A stretch of DNA of 64,000 bases, taken from NCBI RefSeq assembly GCF_057098645.1, contig NZ_CM169472.1; one strand, given 5' to 3'. The notes below the pieces were generated by a model. That model made no database searches and had not been told where the DNA came from. It worked only from the letters and a program-made list of their open reading frames with translations. Position 1 is the first letter of the stretch. Each line of letters starts with the position of its first letter. The position numbers were made by a program, and so were the translations under genes. Of the stretch, positions 2,992 to 29,604 are shown in pieces.

Positions 2992-3868
2992 GATGATCCT
3001 CCTCGTCATCGTCCACTTCCTTATTCGGGCCAATACCGATGTAGTGGAAAATCAACCCGGCAAAAGTGGCAATAAAGCCAGCCGCTGCCAGCGGTTTCAA
3101 CGCGCCTTTCCACAGGCTTACCGAGGTGTCGATCTTCGGATCTTTCGGCAGACTGTGATACAGCTCCGGCTGATCGGCGTGATGCAGCACGTACATAACG
3201 TGCGTACCACCGACCCCTTCCGGGTTGTAGACGCCAGCATGTTCGTAACCACGCGCTTTCAGTTTCGCCACGCGCTGTTCCGCCAGCTCCAGCATCTCCT
3301 TCTTGGTTCCGAAGTGGATAGCCCCGGTCGGACAGGTTTTCACACAAGCCGGTTCCTGGCCGACGCTGACGCGATCGACGCAGAGCGTGCATTTATATAC
3401 CCGGTTATCCTCTTTGTTGAGGCGCGGAATATTAAACGGACACCCGGCAATGCAGTAACCACAGCCGATGCAGTTTTCCGACTGGAAATCGACAATCCCG
3501 TTAGCGTACTGAATGATTGCACCGGCAGACGGGCACGCCTTCAGGCAGCCCGGATCTTCACAGTGCATACAGCCATCTTTACGGATCAGCCACTCCAGCT
3601 TGCCGTTCTGTTCGGTTTCGCTAAAGCGCATCACCGTCCAGGACTTGGCGCTCAGATCGGCGGGGTTATCGTAAACCCCGACGCAGTGCCCCACTTCATC
3701 ACGGATGTCGTTCCACTCCGAACACGCCACCTGACAGGCTTTACAGCCGATACAGGTGGAAACGTCGATAAGTTTTGCGACTTCTGCTTTGTAATCACGC
3801 ACCTGAGAAGGCGGCGTGATGGAGTTAGTTGCGGACCTTTTGATAATGTCCTGCGTTTCCATAGCCAT
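2984..3868 (-). CDS. fdnH: Formate dehydrogenase-N beta (4Fe-4S) subunit
   Basis: 294 aa, multiple CxxCxxCxxxCP ferredoxin motifs. Confidence 0.9.
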
Positions 3869-3880
3869 CTGTTCGCCCCC

Positions 3881-6800
3881 TTACGCCTTCTCGATGTTGA
3901 CTAAGAACGCTTTATATTCCGGCGTTTGCGAGTTTGCATCACCGACATTCGGCGTCAGAGTGTTAGCGATATAACCTTTACGCGCGACACCCTCAAAGCC
4001 CCAGTGGATTGGAATACCCACCGTTTCAACCTGCTGACCATTTACATTCAGCGGTTTCAGACGACGCGTTACCACAGCCACCGCGCGGATAAAGCCACGC
4101 TTGCTTGAGACAGTGACACGATCGCCATTATTAATGCCTTTCGCCGCCGCCAGCGTTTCGCTGATTTCCACAAACTGTTCCGGCTGAGCAATTGCGTTGA
4201 GCAATGCGTGCTTGGTCCAGGTGTGGAAGTGCTCGGTCAGACGATAGGTCGTACCCACATACGGGAACTGCTCTTTTTTACCCATCCGCAGTGCGTCTTG
4301 TTCATACAGACGAACAACCGGGTTAGACACCACGTTCGGATGCAGCGGGTTAGTGCCCAGTGGCGTTTCAATCGGCTCGTAGTGTTCCGGGAACGGACCT
4401 TCCGCCATTTTGTTGATGGCAAACAGGCGTCCCATCCCTTCCGGCTGCATGATAAACGGCCCGGTTGGCGTACCCGGTGCGGCATTGCCGAAGTCAGGAA
4501 TATCGTTACCCGTCCACTTGCTGCCGTTCCACTGGATCAGCATCCGTTTCGGATCCCACGGTTTACCGTTGATATCCGCCGAAGCACGGTTGTACAGCAC
4601 GCGACGGTTGAGCGGCCACGCCCAAGCCCATCCCAGCGTATTCCCCAGACCGGACGGGTCGGAGTTATCGAGGTTAGCCATCTGGTTGCCCTGCTCTGTC
4701 CAGCTACCGGTGTAGATCCAGCAAGAAGATGCGGTTGTACCGTCATCACGCAGATGCGCAAAGCTACTCAGCAACTGACCTTTCTTCGCAATCAGCACGC
4801 CATTAGCATCATAGAGATCTTCCAGCGCATAGCCGTTGTTCTCTTTAGCTACTTCGTCAGATTGCGGTTCGTGCGGCTGCTTGTAGTTCCAGCTCATCTT
4901 CATCAGCGGTTCTACGCCTTTACCACCTTCGGCCTGGTACAGCTCGCGCAGGTGATGGTAGATACCCGCCAGAATTTCACCGTCGTTACGCGCTTCGCCC
5001 GGCGCATCCTGACCTTTCCAGTGCCACTGCAGCCAGCGACCGGAGTTAGCAATAGAACCATCTTCTTCAGCAAAGCAGGTCGAAGGCAGACGGAATACTT
5101 CAGTCTGAATAGACGCCGGATCGACATCGTTCGACTCGCCGTGGTTCTGCCAGAAGGTTGAGGTTTCAGTCACCAGCGGATCGATAACCACCATGTACTT
5201 CAGCTTGCTCAGGCAGCTCACCACTTTGTTTTTGTCCGGGAAGGACGCAACCGGGTTAAAGCCCTGGCAGAAATAACCGGTGACTTTGCCTTCATCCATC
5301 ATGTTGAAATACTTGATGACGTCGTAGGTCTGGTCCCACTTCGGCAGCCAGTCATAGCCCCAGTTGTTCTCTTTCTGCGCGGCATCGCCATAGAAAGATT
5401 TCATCAGGCTAACGAAGAACTTCGGATAGTTGCTCCAGTAGTTCACCTGACCAGCCAGCGTCGCTTTCGGCGTGTTCGCTTCCAGATACGACTGCAAATC
5501 AACCTGTTTTTCTGACGGCAGCGTCAGATAACCTGGCAGGCTGGTAGAGAGCAGACCTAAGTCAGTCAGACCCTGAATGTTGGAGTGACCACGCAATGCA
5601 TTCACGCCGCCACCGGCCATACCCATGTTACCGAGCAGCAACTGGATCATCGCCATAATACGGATGTTCTGCGCACCCACGGTGTGCTGCGTCCAGCCCA
5701 GCGCGTACAGGAAGGTGGTTGTGCGATCCGGTGCGCTGGTGGAGGCCAGCACTTCACACACTTTCAGGAAGTCGGCTTTTGGCGTACCACAGATGTTTTC
5801 AACAACGTCCGGCGTGTAGCGGGAAACGTGCGCTTTCAGCAGGTTCCACACACAGCGCGGATGAGTCAGTGTTTCATCGCGTTTCGCATAGCCGTTTTCA
5901 TCGAACTGATAGTTCCAGGACGATTTATCGTATTGCCGTTTTTCAGCGTCGTAGCCGCTGAACAGACCGTCTTCGAAAGCAAAATCATCACGCACCAGCA
6001 GGCTGGCGTTGGTGTAATGCTTAACGTATTCGGCGTTGATTTTGTCGTTTTCGATCAGGTAGCGCAAAACGCCAGACAGGAACGTAATGTCCGTACCGGA
6101 ACGAATAGGTGCGTAAATATCCGCCACAGAAGCGGTACGCGTAAAACGGGGATCGACAACGATCAAGGTTGCATCGTTGTTGTTTTTCGCTTCCATCGCC
6201 CAGCGGAAACCGACGGGATGCGCTTCAGCAGCGTTACCGCCCATTACCATTACGACGTTAGCGTTTTTGATATCCACCCAGTGGTTGGTCATCGCACCGC
6301 GACCAAATGTTGGAGCAAGACTTGCTACCGTTGGTCCGTGTCAGACGCGCGCCTGGTTGTCTACCGCCAGCATCCCGAGGGAGCGGGCAAATTTCTGGGT
6401 CAGCATCCCGGTTTCGTTGCTGGCACCGGAAGCACACAGCATACCGGTAGAAAGCCAACGGTTTACCGTTACGCCCTGCTCGTTCTTTTCAATAAAGTTA
6501 GCGTCACGGTCAGCTTTCATCAGCTTCGCAATACGGGAGAATGCTTCTTCCCAGCTAATGCGCTGCCATTTGTCAGAACCTAGCGCACGATATTCCGGGT
6601 AGCGCAGACGGTTTTCGCTGTTGACGTAATCCAGCAAACCGGCCCCTTTCGGGCACAGCGCACCACGGCTTACCGGATGATCCGGGTCACCTTCAATGTG
6701 ATAAATCGCTTCTCTGGCGTTTTTCGCGCCATCACCCAGGCTATACATCAATAGCCCGCAACCTACGGAACAGTATGTGCAGGTGTTACGGATCTCTTTA

Positions 6801-23476: not shown

Positions 23477-23574
23477 GATTACGCTCCTTTTGAAAGATGT
23501 CAGTAAAATTAACACACATTGTGAATGTCGTGTGTCCGGTAATGCGTTTTTACGACAATAATGCCAGGGCAAGA

Positions 23575-24102
23575 TTACGAAAGCCTTCTCCCCGCAAGGA
23601 CTGACGCCAGGTAGTTTCTGTCCATGGCTGCTTTTCGCATCTTACGTCTTAACCCAGCCTTGAATACCTTATCATTCGTCAAAATATTAATAGCAATGTG
23701 CCGTATCCCTGAAAATAATTCTGCTGCATTTCCTCTTCTTATTTTGCAGTCGTCTTCATTCATTACCACGTCCAGACGCCAGTGCAGCTTATTCTCCACG
23801 TGCCAGTGGTTTCGGATTGCTGTGGCGAACTTCTCTGCGGTTAAATCAGCAGAACTGATATAATATCTGACCGTCATTTCTGGCTCTTTCTTTTGTTCTG
23901 CTATTATGGACCGAAAGGAGACTGCCACGCATAATTTCTTCAGCCCTTTCCATTCAAACGTGAAATCAATAAGTTCATCAGGAACATCGCAAACAATATG
24001 AAGACGGATTTCTTCTCTGCCGTGACTAAAATGCGAATTATTTAGTACAAAAAAAGCGGCGCACCTTGTTCTTTCCCAGATTCCTAATATGGCAACTTTA
24101 AG
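23575..24102 (-). pseudogene. ISAs1-family (H-repeat-associated) transposase, 3' fragment only
   Basis: Open frame of 175 codons with no start codon; C-terminal region with [22 protein letters not shown] typical of H-repeat ORFs; N-terminal half replaced by AT-rich DNA. Confidence 0.7.
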
Positions 24103-24266
24103 TTATCGCCGTCTATACTTATAGAAATTTCATCAGGGGTGACATAAATAGAATTTTTTTCATCCTCAATTGCCCATAACTGATTAATAAAAAAGTGTTT
24201 TTTATCATCTAATAACAAATCATCACATGTAGTAAAATTATTAATATCAAAAAAAATCATCAGCAC
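24084..24266 (-). CDS. Hypothetical small acidic protein (58-60 aa)
   Basis: ORF only; overlaps the end of the upstream ORF; no clear RBS. Confidence 0.3.
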
Positions 24267-24678
24267 AATTAATTTTTAAATTTAAAAAATAAAGAAAAAT
24301 ATTATTGATTGATTTGAGTGTAAACCACTTGTCATTAACAAATTTATAGCTAGATGATTTTATAAAATAATAATTATCTCCTGGTATAAAGGCATACATA
24401 TCATTTAAGGTTATACTCAACAAAAAACTACGACCTGGTTTAATAGTATTCCAGCGTTCAGGATTCGTATTAATTTCAAAAGGACATGAACCACCTAAGT
24501 AGTCCAACGTGATATTCCCAGAGTTGATCCTGAATGGTTTTTTGCATATCGCATCATATTCATCTCCTTTTCCATCTTTTACTTTCATAGGTAGATAATA
24601 TTTAGAAAAAAAATACGTGGTAGAGCTATTGTTAGTAAAGGTTATGTTAGCAAAAATCCTGTTATTTTTTTTACTCAT
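24247..24678 (-). CDS. Hypothetical protein; frame is open upstream to 24822 without a start (possible disrupted gene)
   Basis: 143-aa ORF from ATG 24678; same frame open for a further 48 codons upstream; an overlapping 38-codon ORF with ATG lies in another frame. Confidence 0.4.
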   Translation of the reverse strand: MSKKNNRIFANITFTNNSSTTYFFSKYYLPMKVKDGKGDEYDAICKKPFRINSGNITLDYLGGSCPFEINTNPERWNTIKPGRSFLLSITLNDMYAFIPGDNYYFIKSSSYKFVNDKWFTLKSINNIFLYFLNLKINCADDFF

Positions 24679-24956
24679 AGCTAATTGAGCATTGACATCC
24701 GCTATATAATTTATATGATTACATTTTTTCTTACACTCATCATAATTTTCGATAGGATAAATTAATGGTCTTCCTTTGATATCTCTCTCAAGCCCAAACC
24801 CGTATTTTTTATTAAAACCATTTCATCCGCAGTCGATTGAAAGGAATAGAAAAATATAATATTTACGATTGTCATTATTATGATTTTTTTATAGCTTGCA
24901 GCATTAATATATTTCTCGACTTATTAGTTAATGGAGAAGTGTTTTTTCTAATTCCG

Positions 24957-25184
24957 CTATTTTTTCTTAACTGAATTGCTTAATATTTCATCATTAATCG
25001 AGTCTATCTCACTTTCAATTAATCTTATTTCAAAATATCTTTCTATGTTATATGCATTCTCAAATATTTGATCTTTTTGTTTAGAGATCAGTTTAGTTGC
25101 AATACGGATATGTTCGTCATATGAAACTTCATCCTCTTTGCACGTTGAATATTTATCAGTAGTTGTATAATCCTGTGACCACAT
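24957..25184 (-). CDS. Hypothetical acidic protein (75 aa)
   Basis: ATG preceded by AAAAGGTGGT; net acidic; AT-rich. Confidence 0.5.
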   Translation of the reverse strand: MWSQDYTTTDKYSTCKEDEVSYDEHIRIATKLISKQKDQIFENAYNIERYFEIRLIESEIDSINDEILSNSVKKK

Positions 25185-25266
25185 ACCACCTTTTTATTAT
25201 CCCCATAATACCACTGAATATGAGACATTTCATGACATAAAGTAGTAACATGAGAATCCTTTCCCG

Positions 25267-25716
25267 TTACTGGATTTTTTTGCCATCTCTATACTCAAAT
25301 TTTGCGCCTATGTTAATTATATAGGACATATCCTTACTTGGGCTGACGAATGCTGCAAATTCATTACAACCTGTATAATTTATAAAACTGCTCATTGTTA
25401 AATCATTAGCTATAATCATTAATCTTCTCACGCCATCCATCATAAGAAATCTAGCATTCATGCGCCTACCTGTATTATATCCATATTTTCTTATATTAAC
25501 TTCCTTATTTCCTTTAACACCAAAGATCTTACTGAAATAATATTCCTCCTGTGCTCCCCATCTCAAAAGATCATCTGCTCTTTTTATCAAAACCAACTTT
25601 TGTGCCTTACGAGCCTTATCAATCATTATTTTAAAATGATCAGTTATTTTTTGCTCTTTCACACATTCTTCTGGCTCTGGCTTTGGTTGTCCAGAAGTTT
25701 GATTATTATCGTCCAT
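25267..25716 (-). CDS. Hypothetical basic protein (149 aa from internal ATG)
   Basis: ATG 25716 preceded by GGAAGGA; net basic; no family recognised. Confidence 0.5.
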   Translation of the reverse strand: MDDNNQTSGQPKPEPEECVKEQKITDHFKIMIDKARKAQKLVLIKRADDLLRWGAQEEYYFSKIFGVKGNKEVNIRKYGYNTGRRMNARFLMMDGVRRLMIIANDLTMSSFINYTGCNEFAAFVSPSKDMSYIINIGAKFEYRDGKKIQ

Positions 25717-25903
25717 AGTGTCCTTCCATTGAGAGAAAATCATCATTCGCAAATAGCAACTAAAAAGCAGCATTACTTGACCTTTCCCTGCATAACAATA
25801 TTTATAAAATAATACGTTTTATGATCTCACCTTGGGCTCCCAACAAGATAATTTCAGTTTTAAAGACTTTCACGAAAAAAATATAGAAATACCTCACCAC
25901 CCT

Positions 25904-26194
25904 TCACTTACCAATTAATCTCACAGGAAATCCAACTTCCTTACCACAAATACAATCCCAAGTAACACCTCCCAAAATTTTTGATACTTTAGGCTGCAAT
26001 GGCATTATTGACATTATAAATTTATCAAGTTCTTCGCTATATTTAATTCCCTTTATATTTCTTATTATTGATATTCTAGCAGTAAAGATAGCCGTCTCTC
26101 CATCTACACTAAAAGTGTAATTACAATTTTTTGTAATCTCATCAAATTCAACCGATAACAAATCAATATTATGGTTTGTAAACACTATGCCCAT
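25904..26194 (-). CDS. Hypothetical protein (96 aa), candidate immunity partner of the upstream papain-like domain
   Basis: ATG 26194 overlaps the stop of the upstream ORF by 26 nt. Confidence 0.45.
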   Translation of the reverse strand: MGIVFTNHNIDLLSVEFDEITKNCNYTFSVDGETAIFTARISIIRNIKGIKYSEELDKFIMSIMPLQPKVSKILGGVTWDCICGKEVGFPVRLIGK

Positions 26195-26672
26195 TCCATA
26201 CCTCCTTAAATTCCTGTTCAGTCATCAGATATCGACTCCCTTGATATGGATCATATATTATCACATTCCCAGCATCATCAACACCCTTAACAAGTACCCA
26301 ATGCCCTACTTTACTTCCAGAATCCCATATCATTGCTCCCCATGAACCAGTATTACTGAGGGCATATAAACTAGATTCGCTCACTGCATTCCCTTCCCAG
26401 CCGACATCAAATTTATTAAGCTTGTTTGCCAGCGACGTCATAGATGTTAATTCTGTTCCAATTACATTTTGCGTGACAAAAATATACCTATCCCTAAGCA
26501 ACATTTCCCCACAGGCCGCTCCACAGCCTGTTAAAGTCAATTGCTTTATTACATTTGAATCTAAAACCTCATCAAATACTGTCCAATTGCCACCAGCACC
26601 ACCTTCTAAAACTACCGGCTCTACAAATACTTTCCCAGAGATATTTTCTTCTGGTATTTTTGCGGGTATCCA
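26169..26672 (-). pseudogene. Orphan papain-like (C39-like) cysteine peptidase-fold domain without an ATG/GTG start
   Basis: Frame open 26672-26169; only TTG at 26540; motifs TGCGAACGEML (Cys) and GHWVLVKGVDD...IIYDP (His, Asp) in papain-fold order. Confidence 0.5.
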
Positions 26673-28144
26673 TTACTGGTGGCGTCTTCAAACCGCAGCT
26701 CGTTAAATCCGCTTCCTTTATAGGTTTTTGACCGGATGGTCATCTGCGTCTTCGTTCCCGGCAGGTCGCCCGGCGAACGGTTGTCCTCATGGTAGGTCCG
26801 CCCCATGATTATCGGCTGGTCCGGGTCGCCGTTCAGAAAATCAACAATCACCTCCTGGCCCACCCGCGGTATCGCCAGGTTACCGAACCCCGGCCCCGCC
26901 CACGCCTGCGACACCCGCACCCAGCATGAACTCGCCTCCGTCATCCCGTGATAACGGTCCCAGTGGAACTTCACCCGTACCCGGCCATGCTCGTCGCAGA
27001 AAATCTCTTCTCCCGCAGGCCCGGTGACAATGGCGCTCTGTGGCCCGTCCACCTTCGGTTTGTTTTGCAGCCGTGGACGCCACGTCCGGTCCGCCGGTAT
27101 CACCTCTAACTGATTTCCCAGCGTGGTTCCCTTTCCCTGGCTGCCGTGCAGCGCCTGCGGCTGGCTTCCTGACAGTATGCTCTGTACCACCTGCCATTCA
27201 CGGTTCAGCATCTTCTGCGGATGCCTCGTCAGCGTAAACCGCGTTCCCGGCCACAGCCTCGGCGAATTACTCTGCCCTGTGGCCTTTTCCGCATCACTGC
27301 GCAGGCTGTCCATCTGGTACAGCGTGAAATCCTTGCCGTGCTGCTCGTCCTTGAACCTTCCCGGATAATCAAATATCTCATACTGCGCCAGCTGTCCGTT
27401 CAGGTTCTCACCCTGCTGCTCATACATCCCCGGCCAGTCCGGCACCTTAAACGTGTAATCCTGGCTCTGTACCGACGACGGGCGGACATACGCCTCATAA
27501 CGGAACATACTGACACACTCTGTCTCCGCTCCTGCCGATGTGTCCGGGTTAAACGGAAACTCCCCCGCCTGTGACAGCCCCGCCACATCGTCGCACAGCG
27601 TCAGCTTCTGCTCCGGACTGTCCGCCGCAAACCGCTCAAAGAAGAAAATCCCCTCCTCCGCCCACAGCCGCGCCAGAAACGCCAGGTCGCTCTCACCGTA
27701 CTGGACACAGAACTCCCGCGCCGGATGGTCTTCATAAAACAGCGGAGTCCACTCCGTGACGCCGTTCTCGTTCAGTAACGTGGCCGATACCGTCCGGATA
27801 TCCTGCTGCTGGAAGATACGGAAGTTCTGCCGCAGCCCGCACCGCCATAACGGCGGCTCAATACGCAGGTGATAACGCATCTGCCAGCCATTGTTCTCCT
27901 GCATGCCAAAGCCCGCCACCACGCCGGTAACATAACGCAGCGGGATGACGCCCTGCCAGATGGTCAGCGTCGCCTTCTTCTCCAGCAGCATCCCCGCCGT
28001 CTGCATAAAAGAGTCGCTGGCAACATCCACACTCATCACAAACGGATATGACTGGTTCTGGATTAACCTGAAATTCGCCACTGCAAAGGTGTCCGGCTCC
28101 TGGCCGTCAATCTCCAGCGTAAAGCGCAGACCTTTTAAGGACAT
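26621..28144 (-). CDS. VgrG (T6SS spike) N-terminal gp27/gp5-like portion, truncated at ~490 residues
   Basis: Conserved VgrG blocks incl. SSCWVRVSQAWAGPGFGNLAIPRVGQEVIVDFLNGDPDQPIIMGRTY; C-terminal 20 residues unrelated; GC-rich then abrupt AT-rich junction near 26670. Confidence 0.85.
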   Translation of the reverse strand: MSLKGLRFTLEIDGQEPDTFAVANFRLIQNQSYPFVMSVDVASDSFMQTAGMLLEKKATLTIWQGVIPLRYVTGVVAGFGMQENNGWQMRYHLRIEPPLWRCGLRQNFRIFQQQDIRTVSATLLNENGVTEWTPLFYEDHPAREFCVQYGESDLAFLARLWAEEGIFFFERFAADSPEQKLTLCDDVAGLSQAGEFPFNPDTSAGAETECVSMFRYEAYVRPSSVQSQDYTFKVPDWPGMYEQQGENLNGQLAQYEIFDYPGRFKDEQHGKDFTLYQMDSLRSDAEKATGQSNSPRLWPGTRFTLTRHPQKMLNREWQVVQSILSGSQPQALHGSQGKGTTLGNQLEVIPADRTWRPRLQNKPKVDGPQSAIVTGPAGEEIFCDEHGRVRVKFHWDRYHGMTEASSCWVRVSQAWAGPGFGNLAIPRVGQEVIVDFLNGDPDQPIIMGRTYHEDNRSPGDLPGTKTQMTIRSKTYKGSGFNELRFEDATSNGYPQKYQKKISLGKYL

Positions 28145-28162
28145 AAATACCTCTCAGACATA

Positions 28163-28447
28163 TCAGCCTACATTTACCGTACCGCCACCAATGACCACAC
28201 CACCACAGTCGATGGCATCACCGGTTCTGGCGGCGGGCAGGCCGTCAATAAAGACGGTTGACGAGCCTCTGGCGATTTTACGGGGATGAGGGGGATGCTT
28301 CGGTTTAGCATGCGGCGTCAGCGGATCTCCCTGGCGGGCTGCGGGGAGACCATCGATAAAAACGGTGGATGACCCGGCGGTGATGACGGTCTCGTAATAA
28401 CCGTCGTGCTGGGTGCCTTTGTCGGTGAGTTTGGCTGCTAAAGGCAT
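28163..28447 (-). CDS. PAAR-domain protein (94 aa)
   Basis: Two STVFIDGLPAAR(Q/T)GD PAAR motifs; AGGAGG RBS; 18 bp upstream of vgrG. Confidence 0.8.
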   Translation of the reverse strand: MPLAAKLTDKGTQHDGYYETVITAGSSTVFIDGLPAARQGDPLTPHAKPKHPPHPRKIARGSSTVFIDGLPAARTGDAIDCGGVVIGGGTVNVG

Positions 28448-28986
28448 AATTCCTCCTGTTCAGAATTTCTACAGCAGCAGGTTTCAAAAATCCGGAGAAA
28501 TATTCAACGAAATATTAATCACTTCACCGGATATTCTGATACGTACCTTCACTGGTCTATTTAAGTAATACAAATTGTTGGCGTGAATTAAGTTCCATTT
28601 TGTTCTCCTTAATTATGTAAGGAGTATTTGATCATGTATAAGCAATAAAAACAGCTTCAGGAAATAAGGAATATCGCAATTTTTAAACATAAAATGCGAA
28701 TCGTTCAATACAAAAAAGCAGCGTTGCGTAATCTTTCCCTGATTAAATACGCTACCGCCCTACCCTGATGACATGATCTGCACTGCACTATCATATCGAC
28801 ATGTTTCTCTACATGCGAAAAGATGTTTTATTTTCGGATTGTATTAAATTGATATTTCATATAAAAAACGAAATTACATCAATCATATAAATAGTTGTAC
28901 CAACTTTAATTACTATTCATAGCAAACAAATGAATATCCAGTTAACTACGCCAGTGATTCATTAACATTAACCTCCGGCATTATTG

Positions 28987-29604
28987 TTAAATAATGACAT
29001 TCCTTTTTAATACTTCTTGTAATTTCGGTAACTGACATACAGCATCAGCAATCGCACTGATATTCGTGGCATTATCCTGAAACCATTCATGCCCAGGCCC
29101 CCATGTGCGCATAGTGCAAAGATAACAGTCCACCAGCGTTAGTTGCTCACCAAACGCATAAGGTTCAGCGGTCAATTGTGAATTCAGCCAGATATAAAGC
29201 GATTTACGATATTCAATAACATTCTTCTTTAACTGTTCGGGTGCGTCAGGAGCCCAACGCTCAGGGTAATCGGCGAAAGTGAATGTTGGATAGACATTAG
29301 CAACCAGCCAGACCAATAGCCGTTGAAACTGCTGACGTTCGGCGCGCCCAACCGGTGGCGCAAGGTCCGGGCGACGATCGAGAACCATCAATGCAATCGC
29401 CGCTGTCTCCGTCATAATCTCGTCATTTTCCAGCGCCAGTGTCGGAATCTGACACAACGGGTTCAGGGTTTTCAATAACTCGCGTGAAGTTCCCTCGTGG
29501 TCAAAACCACTGACATCAACGAACTGATAAGGAATATCAGCCAGTGTTAGCATCAGCTCACTGATTGTAGAGCCCCATCCGGGTACGCCATACACCTTAA
29601 TCAT
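28987..29604 (-). CDS. yncG: Glutathione S-transferase-like protein
   Basis: 205 aa; GST fold sequence; synteny. Confidence 0.85.
   Translation of the reverse strand: MIKVYGVPGWGSTISELMLTLADIPYQFVDVSGFDHEGTSRELLKTLNPLCQIPTLALENDEIMTETAAIALMVLDRRPDLAPPVGRAERQQFQRLLVWLVANVYPTFTFADYPERWAPDAPEQLKKNVIEYRKSLYIWLNSQLTAEPYAFGEQLTLVDCYLCTMRTWGPGHEWFQDNATNISAIADAVCQLPKLQEVLKRNVII

Follow-up and report, generated by a model that had tools for sequence, protein, structure and literature searches.

We analyzed a 64,000-nucleotide stretch of DNA (contig NZ_CM169472.1 of NCBI RefSeq assembly GCF_057098645.1; hereafter, the window) with respect to the intergenic spacer that separates yncG from a PAAR gene. 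The gene order in the window is pqqU (yncD), yncE, ansP and yncG, followed by the spacer, the PAAR gene, a truncated vgrG, low-GC effector/immunity-like open reading frames (ORFs), a decayed ISAs1-family transposase gene, and pptA. The window is Escherichia coli chromosome, and the locus corresponds to the rhsE locus of E. coli K-12, in which yncG is followed by yncH and then by the rhsE pseudogene. The spacer and its immediate neighbors are the following:

28987–29604, minus strand: yncG.
28448–28986: the spacer, 539 bp.
28452–28457, minus strand: AGGAGG, the Shine-Dalgarno (SD) sequence of the PAAR gene, 4 nt before its ATG.
28163–28447, minus strand: the PAAR gene, 94 aa, first gene of the island (Pfam PAAR_motif, 8.8e-21).
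26621–28144, minus strand: vgrG/tssI, C-terminally truncated, 507 aa (Pfam Phage_GPD, 2.2e-72).

Because yncG, PAAR, and vgrG are all encoded on the minus strand, the spacer is located downstream of yncG and upstream of PAAR. An earlier note on this DNA had described it as an AT-rich spacer of about 540 bp that lacks any ORF of 60 aa or more, and both statements hold: the GC content is 32.7%, compared with 48.9% for the window, only 3.8% of 539-bp segments across the window are equally AT-rich, and the ORF list contains no ORF of at least 60 aa within 28448–28986. A 60-aa ORF with a TTG start (28305–28487) merely begins in the spacer and then crosses PAAR out of frame. The spacer is 99.8% identical to that of E. 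coli O145 strain RM9872, in which the near-identical copy of vgrG is labelled as a pseudogene in RefSeq, and a megablast search recovered it complete in 686 of 5426 complete E. coli genomes (~13%), including UTI89 and Nissle-type strains. Over the 260 nt read, contig 108 of HRGM_Genome_0066, a MAG labelled Citrobacter sp., also appears to match the UTI89-type E. coli yncG–PAAR spacer; the contig is probably either E. coli sequence mis-binned into that MAG or the product of a recent transfer.

The vgrG gene is cut at 507 aa exactly at the point where the GC content drops from ~60% to ~30% (region 24000–28144), and is followed by an ORF with a C39-like cysteine peptidase domain (26169–26540; Pfam, 5.4e-07) and by several unannotated low-GC ORFs. 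The end of vgrG together with the downstream ORFs looks like a displaced or swapped effector/immunity module. Given the truncation of vgrG, the operon may be decaying, and its leader may have ceased to be important in this strain.

Taken as a whole, the spacer is likely to be the 5′ regulatory leader of an orphan PAAR–vgrG–effector island adjoining yncG, with the structure of a four-part mosaic; the sequence anatomy, homologies, and conservation behind this picture were established directly here. The yncG-proximal portion includes a putative promoter zone and a candidate loading site for the antiterminator RfaH:

28790–28986, minus strand: AT-rich promoter zone downstream of the yncG stop (27.8% GC over 28793–28986).
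28865–28838, minus strand: promoter-like site TTTATA-16-TACAAT (consensus match, 9/12).
28819–28790, minus strand: promoter-like site TTCGCA-18-TATGAT (consensus match, 9/12).
28778–28789, minus strand: pentanucleotide repeat (AGTGC)2, overlapping the 5′ block of the JUMPstart-like element.
28748–28785, minus strand: JUMPstart-like element consisting of CAGTGCA, 18 nt, and GGGCGGTAGCGTA (Rfam RF01707, 19.7 bits).
28748–28759, minus strand: ops site GGCGGTAGCGTA, 11/12 to the consensus GGCGGTAGCGTG.

Promoter-like sites are barely more frequent in the spacer than in its shuffled versions (4 found versus 2.7 expected). At position 28841, the window carries TACAAT in place of the perfect −10-like hexamer TATAAT found in 6 other strains, including RM9872; if 28865–28838 is the promoter, this could be a down mutation specific to the strain.

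The earlier note does not mention the feature of the spacer that is most informative, the ops/JUMPstart-like RfaH loading site. The ops site lies on the non-template strand of PAAR–vgrG, 312 nt upstream of the PAAR ATG, within the untranslated leader bounded by the yncG stop (28987) and the PAAR ATG (28447), and the only same-strand ORF extending over it is a 29-codon ATG ORF (28794–28705) without an SD. The 12-mer GGCGGTAGCGTA conforms to the pattern GGCGGTAGnnTG on that strand; its last base is A, whereas the consensus has G, and the same 12-mer is bound by RfaH in uropathogenic E. coli CFT073 (see below). The match to the Rfam model is full length (positions 1–38) and retains both conserved blocks and their spacing. 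Because its score of 19.7 bits (E = 0.097 for the spacer alone) is below the gathering score of 35 bits, we refer to the element as JUMPstart-like rather than as a member of RF01707. The octamer GGCGGTAG is present at 6 sites in the window, mostly in coding sequence; none of the other 5 continues as GCGT, and 28759–28748 is the sole site that has both the GCGTA continuation and an upstream CAGTGCA block at the correct spacing. An Rfam scan of the spacer and its flanks at permissive thresholds yielded nothing meaningful beyond the sub-threshold JUMPstart, the matches to snoRNA and lncRNA families being noise.

The JUMPstart-like 49-mer is widespread: of 5426 complete E. coli genomes, 4725 carry it, with a median of 2 sites per genome. 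In K-12 MG1655, ops GGCGGTAGCGTA and JUMPstart-like flanks are found between yncH and rhsE (3576–3612 of the retrieved segment), without an insertion sequence (IS), ~280 nt upstream of the rhsE pseudogene. In O157, a vgrG–DcrB–rhs island adjoining cusS is preceded, at ~330 nt, by a second JUMPstart-like copy with the variant AGCGGTAGCATA (6001–6044 of the retrieved segment). Neither copy was detected by the Rfam model. The recurrence of the element in the K-12 and O157 leaders indicates that it belongs generally to the 5′ leader of orphan vgrG/rhs islands. In the literature searched on RfaH and rhsE or on JUMPstart and Rhs, no paper was found that describes the K-12 rhsE ops or links RfaH with rhsE. 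The pentanucleotide AGTGC is present in 2 copies in the window, in 5 copies in strain N24, and probably in 3 copies in strain N17, in which the match is 5 nt longer; a repeat of variable length at this position, flanked by ops and the putative promoter, could affect expression.

Compared with the JUMPstart/ops elements of the rfa (waa), rfb, kps, hly, and tra operons (RF01707, the RfaH regulon), the element in the spacer likewise has its ops core on the non-template strand of an untranslated leader, a CAGNGCA block at the canonical 18-nt spacing, and long acquired AT-rich genes downstream. It differs from them in its sub-threshold score, in the terminal ops base (A instead of G), and in the nature of the downstream genes, which encode a type VI secretion system (T6SS) spike and effectors rather than functions in envelope polysaccharide, hemolysin, or conjugation. 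Among E. coli type VI secretion gene clusters, ops has also been described in the Sci1 T6SS cluster of EAEC, where RfaH controls read-through via ops1 and ops2 (bioRxiv 10.1101/2025.02.08.637259). The Sci1 sites are intergenic and lie within a complete T6SS core cluster, whereas the ops described here is in the 5′ leader of an orphan spike/effector island. Our results support the emerging view that RfaH counter-silencing is general among E. coli T6SS effector islands.

A control region of this type is already known from CFT073 and is not new. In a ChIP-seq catalogue of RfaH targets in that strain (Hustmyer et al. 2022, mBio, PMC9765446), the 285-nt gene c1882, which directly follows ansP and the yncG fragments c1879 and c1880, is given with ops GGCGGTAGCGTA at 1715753–1715764, 313 nt upstream. 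RfaH was detected on c1882–c1889 in an hns stpA mutant and not in the wild type, and the signal was lost in an rfaH mutant; a sigma70 peak upstream of c1882 was confined to the hns stpA double mutant (PMC9765446, Fig. S3). In wild-type CFT073, H-NS occupies the c1882 locus and RNAP on c1882 is at background (Class I), and c1882–c1889 was termed a cryptic RfaH-regulated locus (PMC9765446).

The spacer upstream of c1882 aligns to that of the window with 98% identity, and c1882 is the PAAR gene. Both the window island and the H-NS/StpA-silenced orphan type VI secretion locus c1882–c1889 occupy the same chromosomal site (ansP–yncG–spacer–PAAR–vgrG) and share the identical ops 12-mer (312 nt from PAAR here and 313 nt in CFT073), JUMPstart-like flanks, a stump of the insertion sequence ISEc1, and a mini-ORF, both of which are described below; we found no mention of the ISEc1 stump in PMC9765446. 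The spacers differ at 10 positions, including the −10-like TATAAT to TACAAT change at 28841 and 2 changes in the mini-ORF (E2K and S5T). Furthermore, vgrG is truncated in the window and followed by the C39-like peptidase, whereas CFT073 has DUF4123 and other effector/immunity genes. The reading of the spacer in the earlier note as an H-NS-silenced promoter region draws its support from orthology (the 98%-identical CFT073 spacer and the H-NS ChIP data; PMC9765446), and agrees with the low GC content of the spacer (32.7%) and of its yncG-proximal part (27.8%) relative to the window (48.9%). By the same orthology, RfaH and H-NS would be expected to occupy the locus in this strain as they do in CFT073. 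The strain's orphan PAAR–vgrG island thus carries a cryptic H-NS/RfaH control region of the CFT073 type, which matters mainly for correct annotation. Elsewhere in CFT073, between nhoA and yddE (16643–16684 of the retrieved segment), a naRNA4/CssrE match (40.3 bits versus a gathering score of 59.5) is a REP-type element and has no relation to the spacer leader.

The PAAR-proximal portion of the spacer, downstream of ops, contains the following features:

28588–28741, minus strand: 154-bp left-end relic of ISEc1/H-rpt (ISAs1 family), from the alignment with K-12 ydcC.
28605–28624, minus strand: hairpin CTCCTTA-CATAAT-TAAGGAG, 7 bp, −6.9 kcal/mol, in which an SD is paired with an anti-SD.
28557–28598, minus strand: 13-codon mini-ORF MELNSRQQFVLLK plus TAG (ATG at 28598, TAG at 28559–28557).
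28486–28532, minus strand: terminator-like imperfect hairpin, −15.9 kcal/mol, ending in CCGGA and then UUUUU.

Positions 141–296 of the spacer query (28588–28743) match thousands of ISAs1/ISEc1 copies in the 5426 complete E. coli genomes (megablast, 85–94% identity). The matched loci are annotated as ISAs1-family/ISEc1 transposase genes (ydcC, ybfD), with BLAST matches in more than 5000 genomes. The relic starts at the IS terminus CAGGGAAAGAT (28741), with a terminal inverted repeat of the CAGGG type, and shares 88% identity with the K-12 ydcC left end over 153 aligned positions, the last ~40 of which are identical. Identity is perfect over TACTCCTTACATAATTAAGGAGAACAAAATGGAACTTAA, a stretch that takes in the SD, the start codon annotated for ydcC, and the initial 11 bases of coding sequence. 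Homology to ydcC ends abruptly after ATGGAACTTAA (28588), and the stump has neither the remainder of the transposase gene nor a right end. As the homology ends at 28588 and the following 140 nt are absent from IS copies, the stump is a relic and not an element.

The 140 nt that follow 28588 are confined to 687 genomes with this PAAR allele and were not found with IS copies; in CFT073, a second PAAR gene has a leader homologous to them. On this comparison, the sequence beyond the stump is native PAAR leader, joined to the stump by deletion. A MITE-like arrangement, in which the PAAR-proximal 140 nt would be the right end of the IS, was rejected on account of the restriction to the 687 genomes of this allele and the match to the CFT073 PAAR leader. 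An empty site, that is, the same yncG-proximal 243 bp without the IS, was sought and was not encountered among the records sampled. H-rpt elements are reportedly classic companions of the E. coli K-12 Rhs loci (ydcC, yncI, ybfD, yhhI), an observation ascribed to the Hill laboratory in the 1990s. The relic and the K-12 H-rpt/ISEc1 elements are homologous in the left terminus, 5′ UTR, SD hairpin, and start codon, and both reside in an Rhs/vgrG setting at the rhsE locus. In the window, only 154 bp are left and the relic is on the 5′ (leader) side of the island, whereas the K-12 copies are on the 3′ side.

The earlier note had drawn attention to a 13-codon mini-ORF preceded by an SD, about 100 nt upstream of the PAAR start, and had suggested that it could be a leader peptide or chance. 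The AAGGAG (28610–28605, minus strand), the 6-nt gap, the ATG, and the TAG are all where they were reported, and the distance is roughly right: 110 nt separate the stop codon, and 151 nt the mini-ORF ATG, from the PAAR ATG (28447) downstream. When the spacer was shuffled 5000 times with its dinucleotides preserved, a 6-mer SD followed 4–9 nt on by an ATG that opens 10 or more codons turned up in only 0.9% of the shuffles, so the mini-ORF is more than chance. Neither suggestion was borne out: chance is rejected, and a leader peptide is unsupported, the SD and ATG being the start of the ISEc1/H-rpt transposase gene. The homology makes this IS origin of the SD and ATG all but certain. As judged from the alignment, the mini-ORF is the transposase gene's own SD and start codon, read into the PAAR leader as far as the first in-frame stop: its first 11 nt (3 codons and 2 bases of the fourth) derive from the transposase gene and the remainder from the PAAR leader. 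The majority allele of other strains, including CFT073, is MKLNTRQQFVLLK. For small-ORF hunting, the case is a caution that a near-perfect intergenic SD and ATG may be the amputated gene start of a mobile element.

The SD/anti-SD hairpin appears in both the MFE and the centroid folds and is identical in an intact K-12 ISEc1 copy; the anti-SD lies 7 nt upstream of the mini-ORF SD. Masking of the SD against read-through expression is a common device of insertion sequences, and the fold suggests that the mini-ORF SD would be masked in transcripts entering from upstream. As its SD is predicted to be paired with the anti-SD in the read-through transcript, the mini-ORF is probably only weakly translated, and its origin argues that it probably has no dedicated role. 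The 121 nt around the mini-ORF show no unusual structure relative to shuffles (z = 0.10); for the whole 351-nt leader, the excess is modest (z = −2.55) and reflects mostly long-range pairing plus 2 local hairpins.

Downstream of the mini-ORF, the 43-nt imperfect terminator-like hairpin (28532–28490) starts 24 nt after the stop codon, and a longer fold (28542–28481; −24.1 kcal/mol with 12 nt of downstream sequence) starts 14 nt after it. A 9-bp stem, distinct from this one and likewise followed by a U-run, occupies the aligned position in the leader that precedes CFT073's second PAAR gene. The hairpin with its 5 U residues could be a leader terminator that is read through by RfaH-modified polymerase. 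A scan for intrinsic terminators called none on the minus strand, neither 28532–28490 nor 28542–28481, and its single match, on the plus strand, is the IS SD/anti-SD inverted repeat. Strain DG351-2 has lost a G-C pair of the hairpin without compensation.

To place these features in the context of sequence variation, we aligned the spacers of 7 strains, a small sample of close relatives falling into 2 haplogroups. The variable positions are distributed as follows:

yncG-proximal 151 nt: 21/151.
28835–28790, the 46 nt just upstream of the JUMPstart, holding TTCGCA-18-TATGAT: 0/46.
ops: 0/12.
IS stump, 5′ part: 12/123.
SD hairpin through ATG: 0/29.
Mini-ORF: 2/42, both amino-acid changing (E2K, S5T).
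Rest of the PAAR leader: 4/109.

This pattern is suggestive of constraint on the promoter/ops core and uninformative with respect to the peptide. The frame, SD, and ATG of the mini-ORF are intact in 7/7 strains, whose close kinship makes constraint and recent common ancestry indistinguishable.

Based on these results, we propose the following course of events. H-NS and StpA would silence initiation in the AT-rich zone, so that, by orthology with CFT073, the island would be silent in ordinary culture. Once silencing is relieved, polymerase would initiate somewhere within 28783–28835, pause at ops, and recruit the antiterminator RfaH, with NusG excluded. The RfaH-modified polymerase would withstand Rho and H-NS roadblocks, and transcription would cross the ~300-nt untranslated leader, with its IS debris and hairpin, before entering effector genes of 20–35% GC coated by H-NS. 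In evolutionary terms, ISEc1 would have landed 6 nt after ops and later lost everything past the first 11 transposase coding bases, whereas the native part of the PAAR leader would supply the terminator-like hairpin and the PAAR ribosome-binding site. The mini-ORF would be a passenger.

Several alternatives to this reading were considered. The first holds that the mini-ORF is a working leader peptide: ribosomes reaching the TAG at 28559–28557 would disrupt the terminator-like hairpin, PAAR–vgrG expression would come to depend on translation, and the IS debris would form an accidental attenuator that has been retained. The strong SD, the ideal 6-nt spacing, and the ATG, a combination seen in only 0.9% of shuffles, are in its favor, as are the preservation of frame, SD, and start in all 7 strains with an invariant SD-to-ATG stretch, and the hairpin and U5 just downstream, which have a counterpart of different stem and a U-run in the paralogous PAAR leader. 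However, the SD and ATG were inherited from the transposase gene, and their quality is thereby explained without selection at this site; both polymorphisms of the ORF change amino acids; in read-through transcripts, the predicted fold would sequester the SD; and DG351-2 carries the uncompensated loss in the hairpin. Moreover, we found neither a competing antiterminator pairing overlapping the mini-ORF nor a run of regulatory codons within it, that is, neither the mutually exclusive structures nor the regulatory codons of a leader-peptide attenuator. We consider a working leader peptide quite unlikely.

Insertion sequence ends commonly create or carry promoters, and the relic contains, on the correct strand, a promoter-like site (TATACA-17-CATAAT, 28640–28612) that might drive PAAR–vgrG independently of the H-NS-silenced promoter and of ops. 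Such outward transcription from the IS is nevertheless very unlikely: the site matches the consensus at just 9/12 positions, in a spacer with 4 such sites versus 2.7 expected, and a transcript starting from it would begin within the SD. In addition, wild-type CFT073 has the identical relic and its RNAP signal on c1882 is at background, which argues that no constitutive promoter is active in the CFT073 relic.

A further possibility, which we regard as highly improbable, is that the transposase stump has been exapted, with its SD and 13-codon ORF serving as a ribosome-loading or translation-sensing device between ops and the hairpin. If so, the device would cooperate with RfaH, the KOW domain of which recruits ribosomes, in deciding whether transcription proceeds into PAAR–vgrG, and an attenuator made of insertion-sequence debris would have been kept in ~13% of E. 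coli genomes. Finally, the view that the spacer is inert junk, its SD/mini-ORF and ops-like 12-mer being chance matches in AT-rich DNA, is scarcely credible and has effectively been refuted by homology and the published ChIP data. Points in its favor are the 6 copies of GGCGGTAG in the window, most of them within coding sequence, the JUMPstart score, which falls short of the Rfam threshold, and the truncation of vgrG. Against it, the start of the mini-ORF has a homologue in an established gene start, only this one of the 6 octamer sites has GCGTA and a correctly spaced CAGTGCA, RfaH binds the identical site in CFT073, and other vgrG/rhs islands are likewise preceded by the element.

In separate E. 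coli lineages, two distinct members of the ISAs1 family are inserted directly 3′ of one ops site: the ISEc1 stump of the window starts 6 nt after ops (28742–28759), and in strain RIVM_C037884, a full-length, different member of the family starts 1 nt after it (4995–5010 of the retrieved segment). Given these insertions at 1 and 6 nt, we scanned 100,044 species genomes for GGCGGTAGCRT followed, after a gap of 1–13 nt, by CAGGGAAA, a pattern that covers the CAGGGAAA type of terminus. The scan returned 63 matches across unrelated phyla, compared with ~57 expected by chance (2 × 298e9 positions × 13 gap lengths × 0.5 × 4^-18), and the sole relevant match was the same E. coli-type locus in the MAG labelled Citrobacter. 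For this terminus type, a general ISAs1-family hot spot 3′ of ops is unsupported, the scan being at chance level. A second decayed ISEc1/H-rpt copy (23574–24080, minus strand) is located at the far end of the island, adjoining pptA, and consists of ~55 nt of left end (CTGGGAAAGAACAAGG...AATTCGCATTTTA) fused, via an internal deletion, to the C-terminal part of the transposase gene (~150 codons). With one H-rpt relic at each end, both in the same orientation, the island is bracketed by them.
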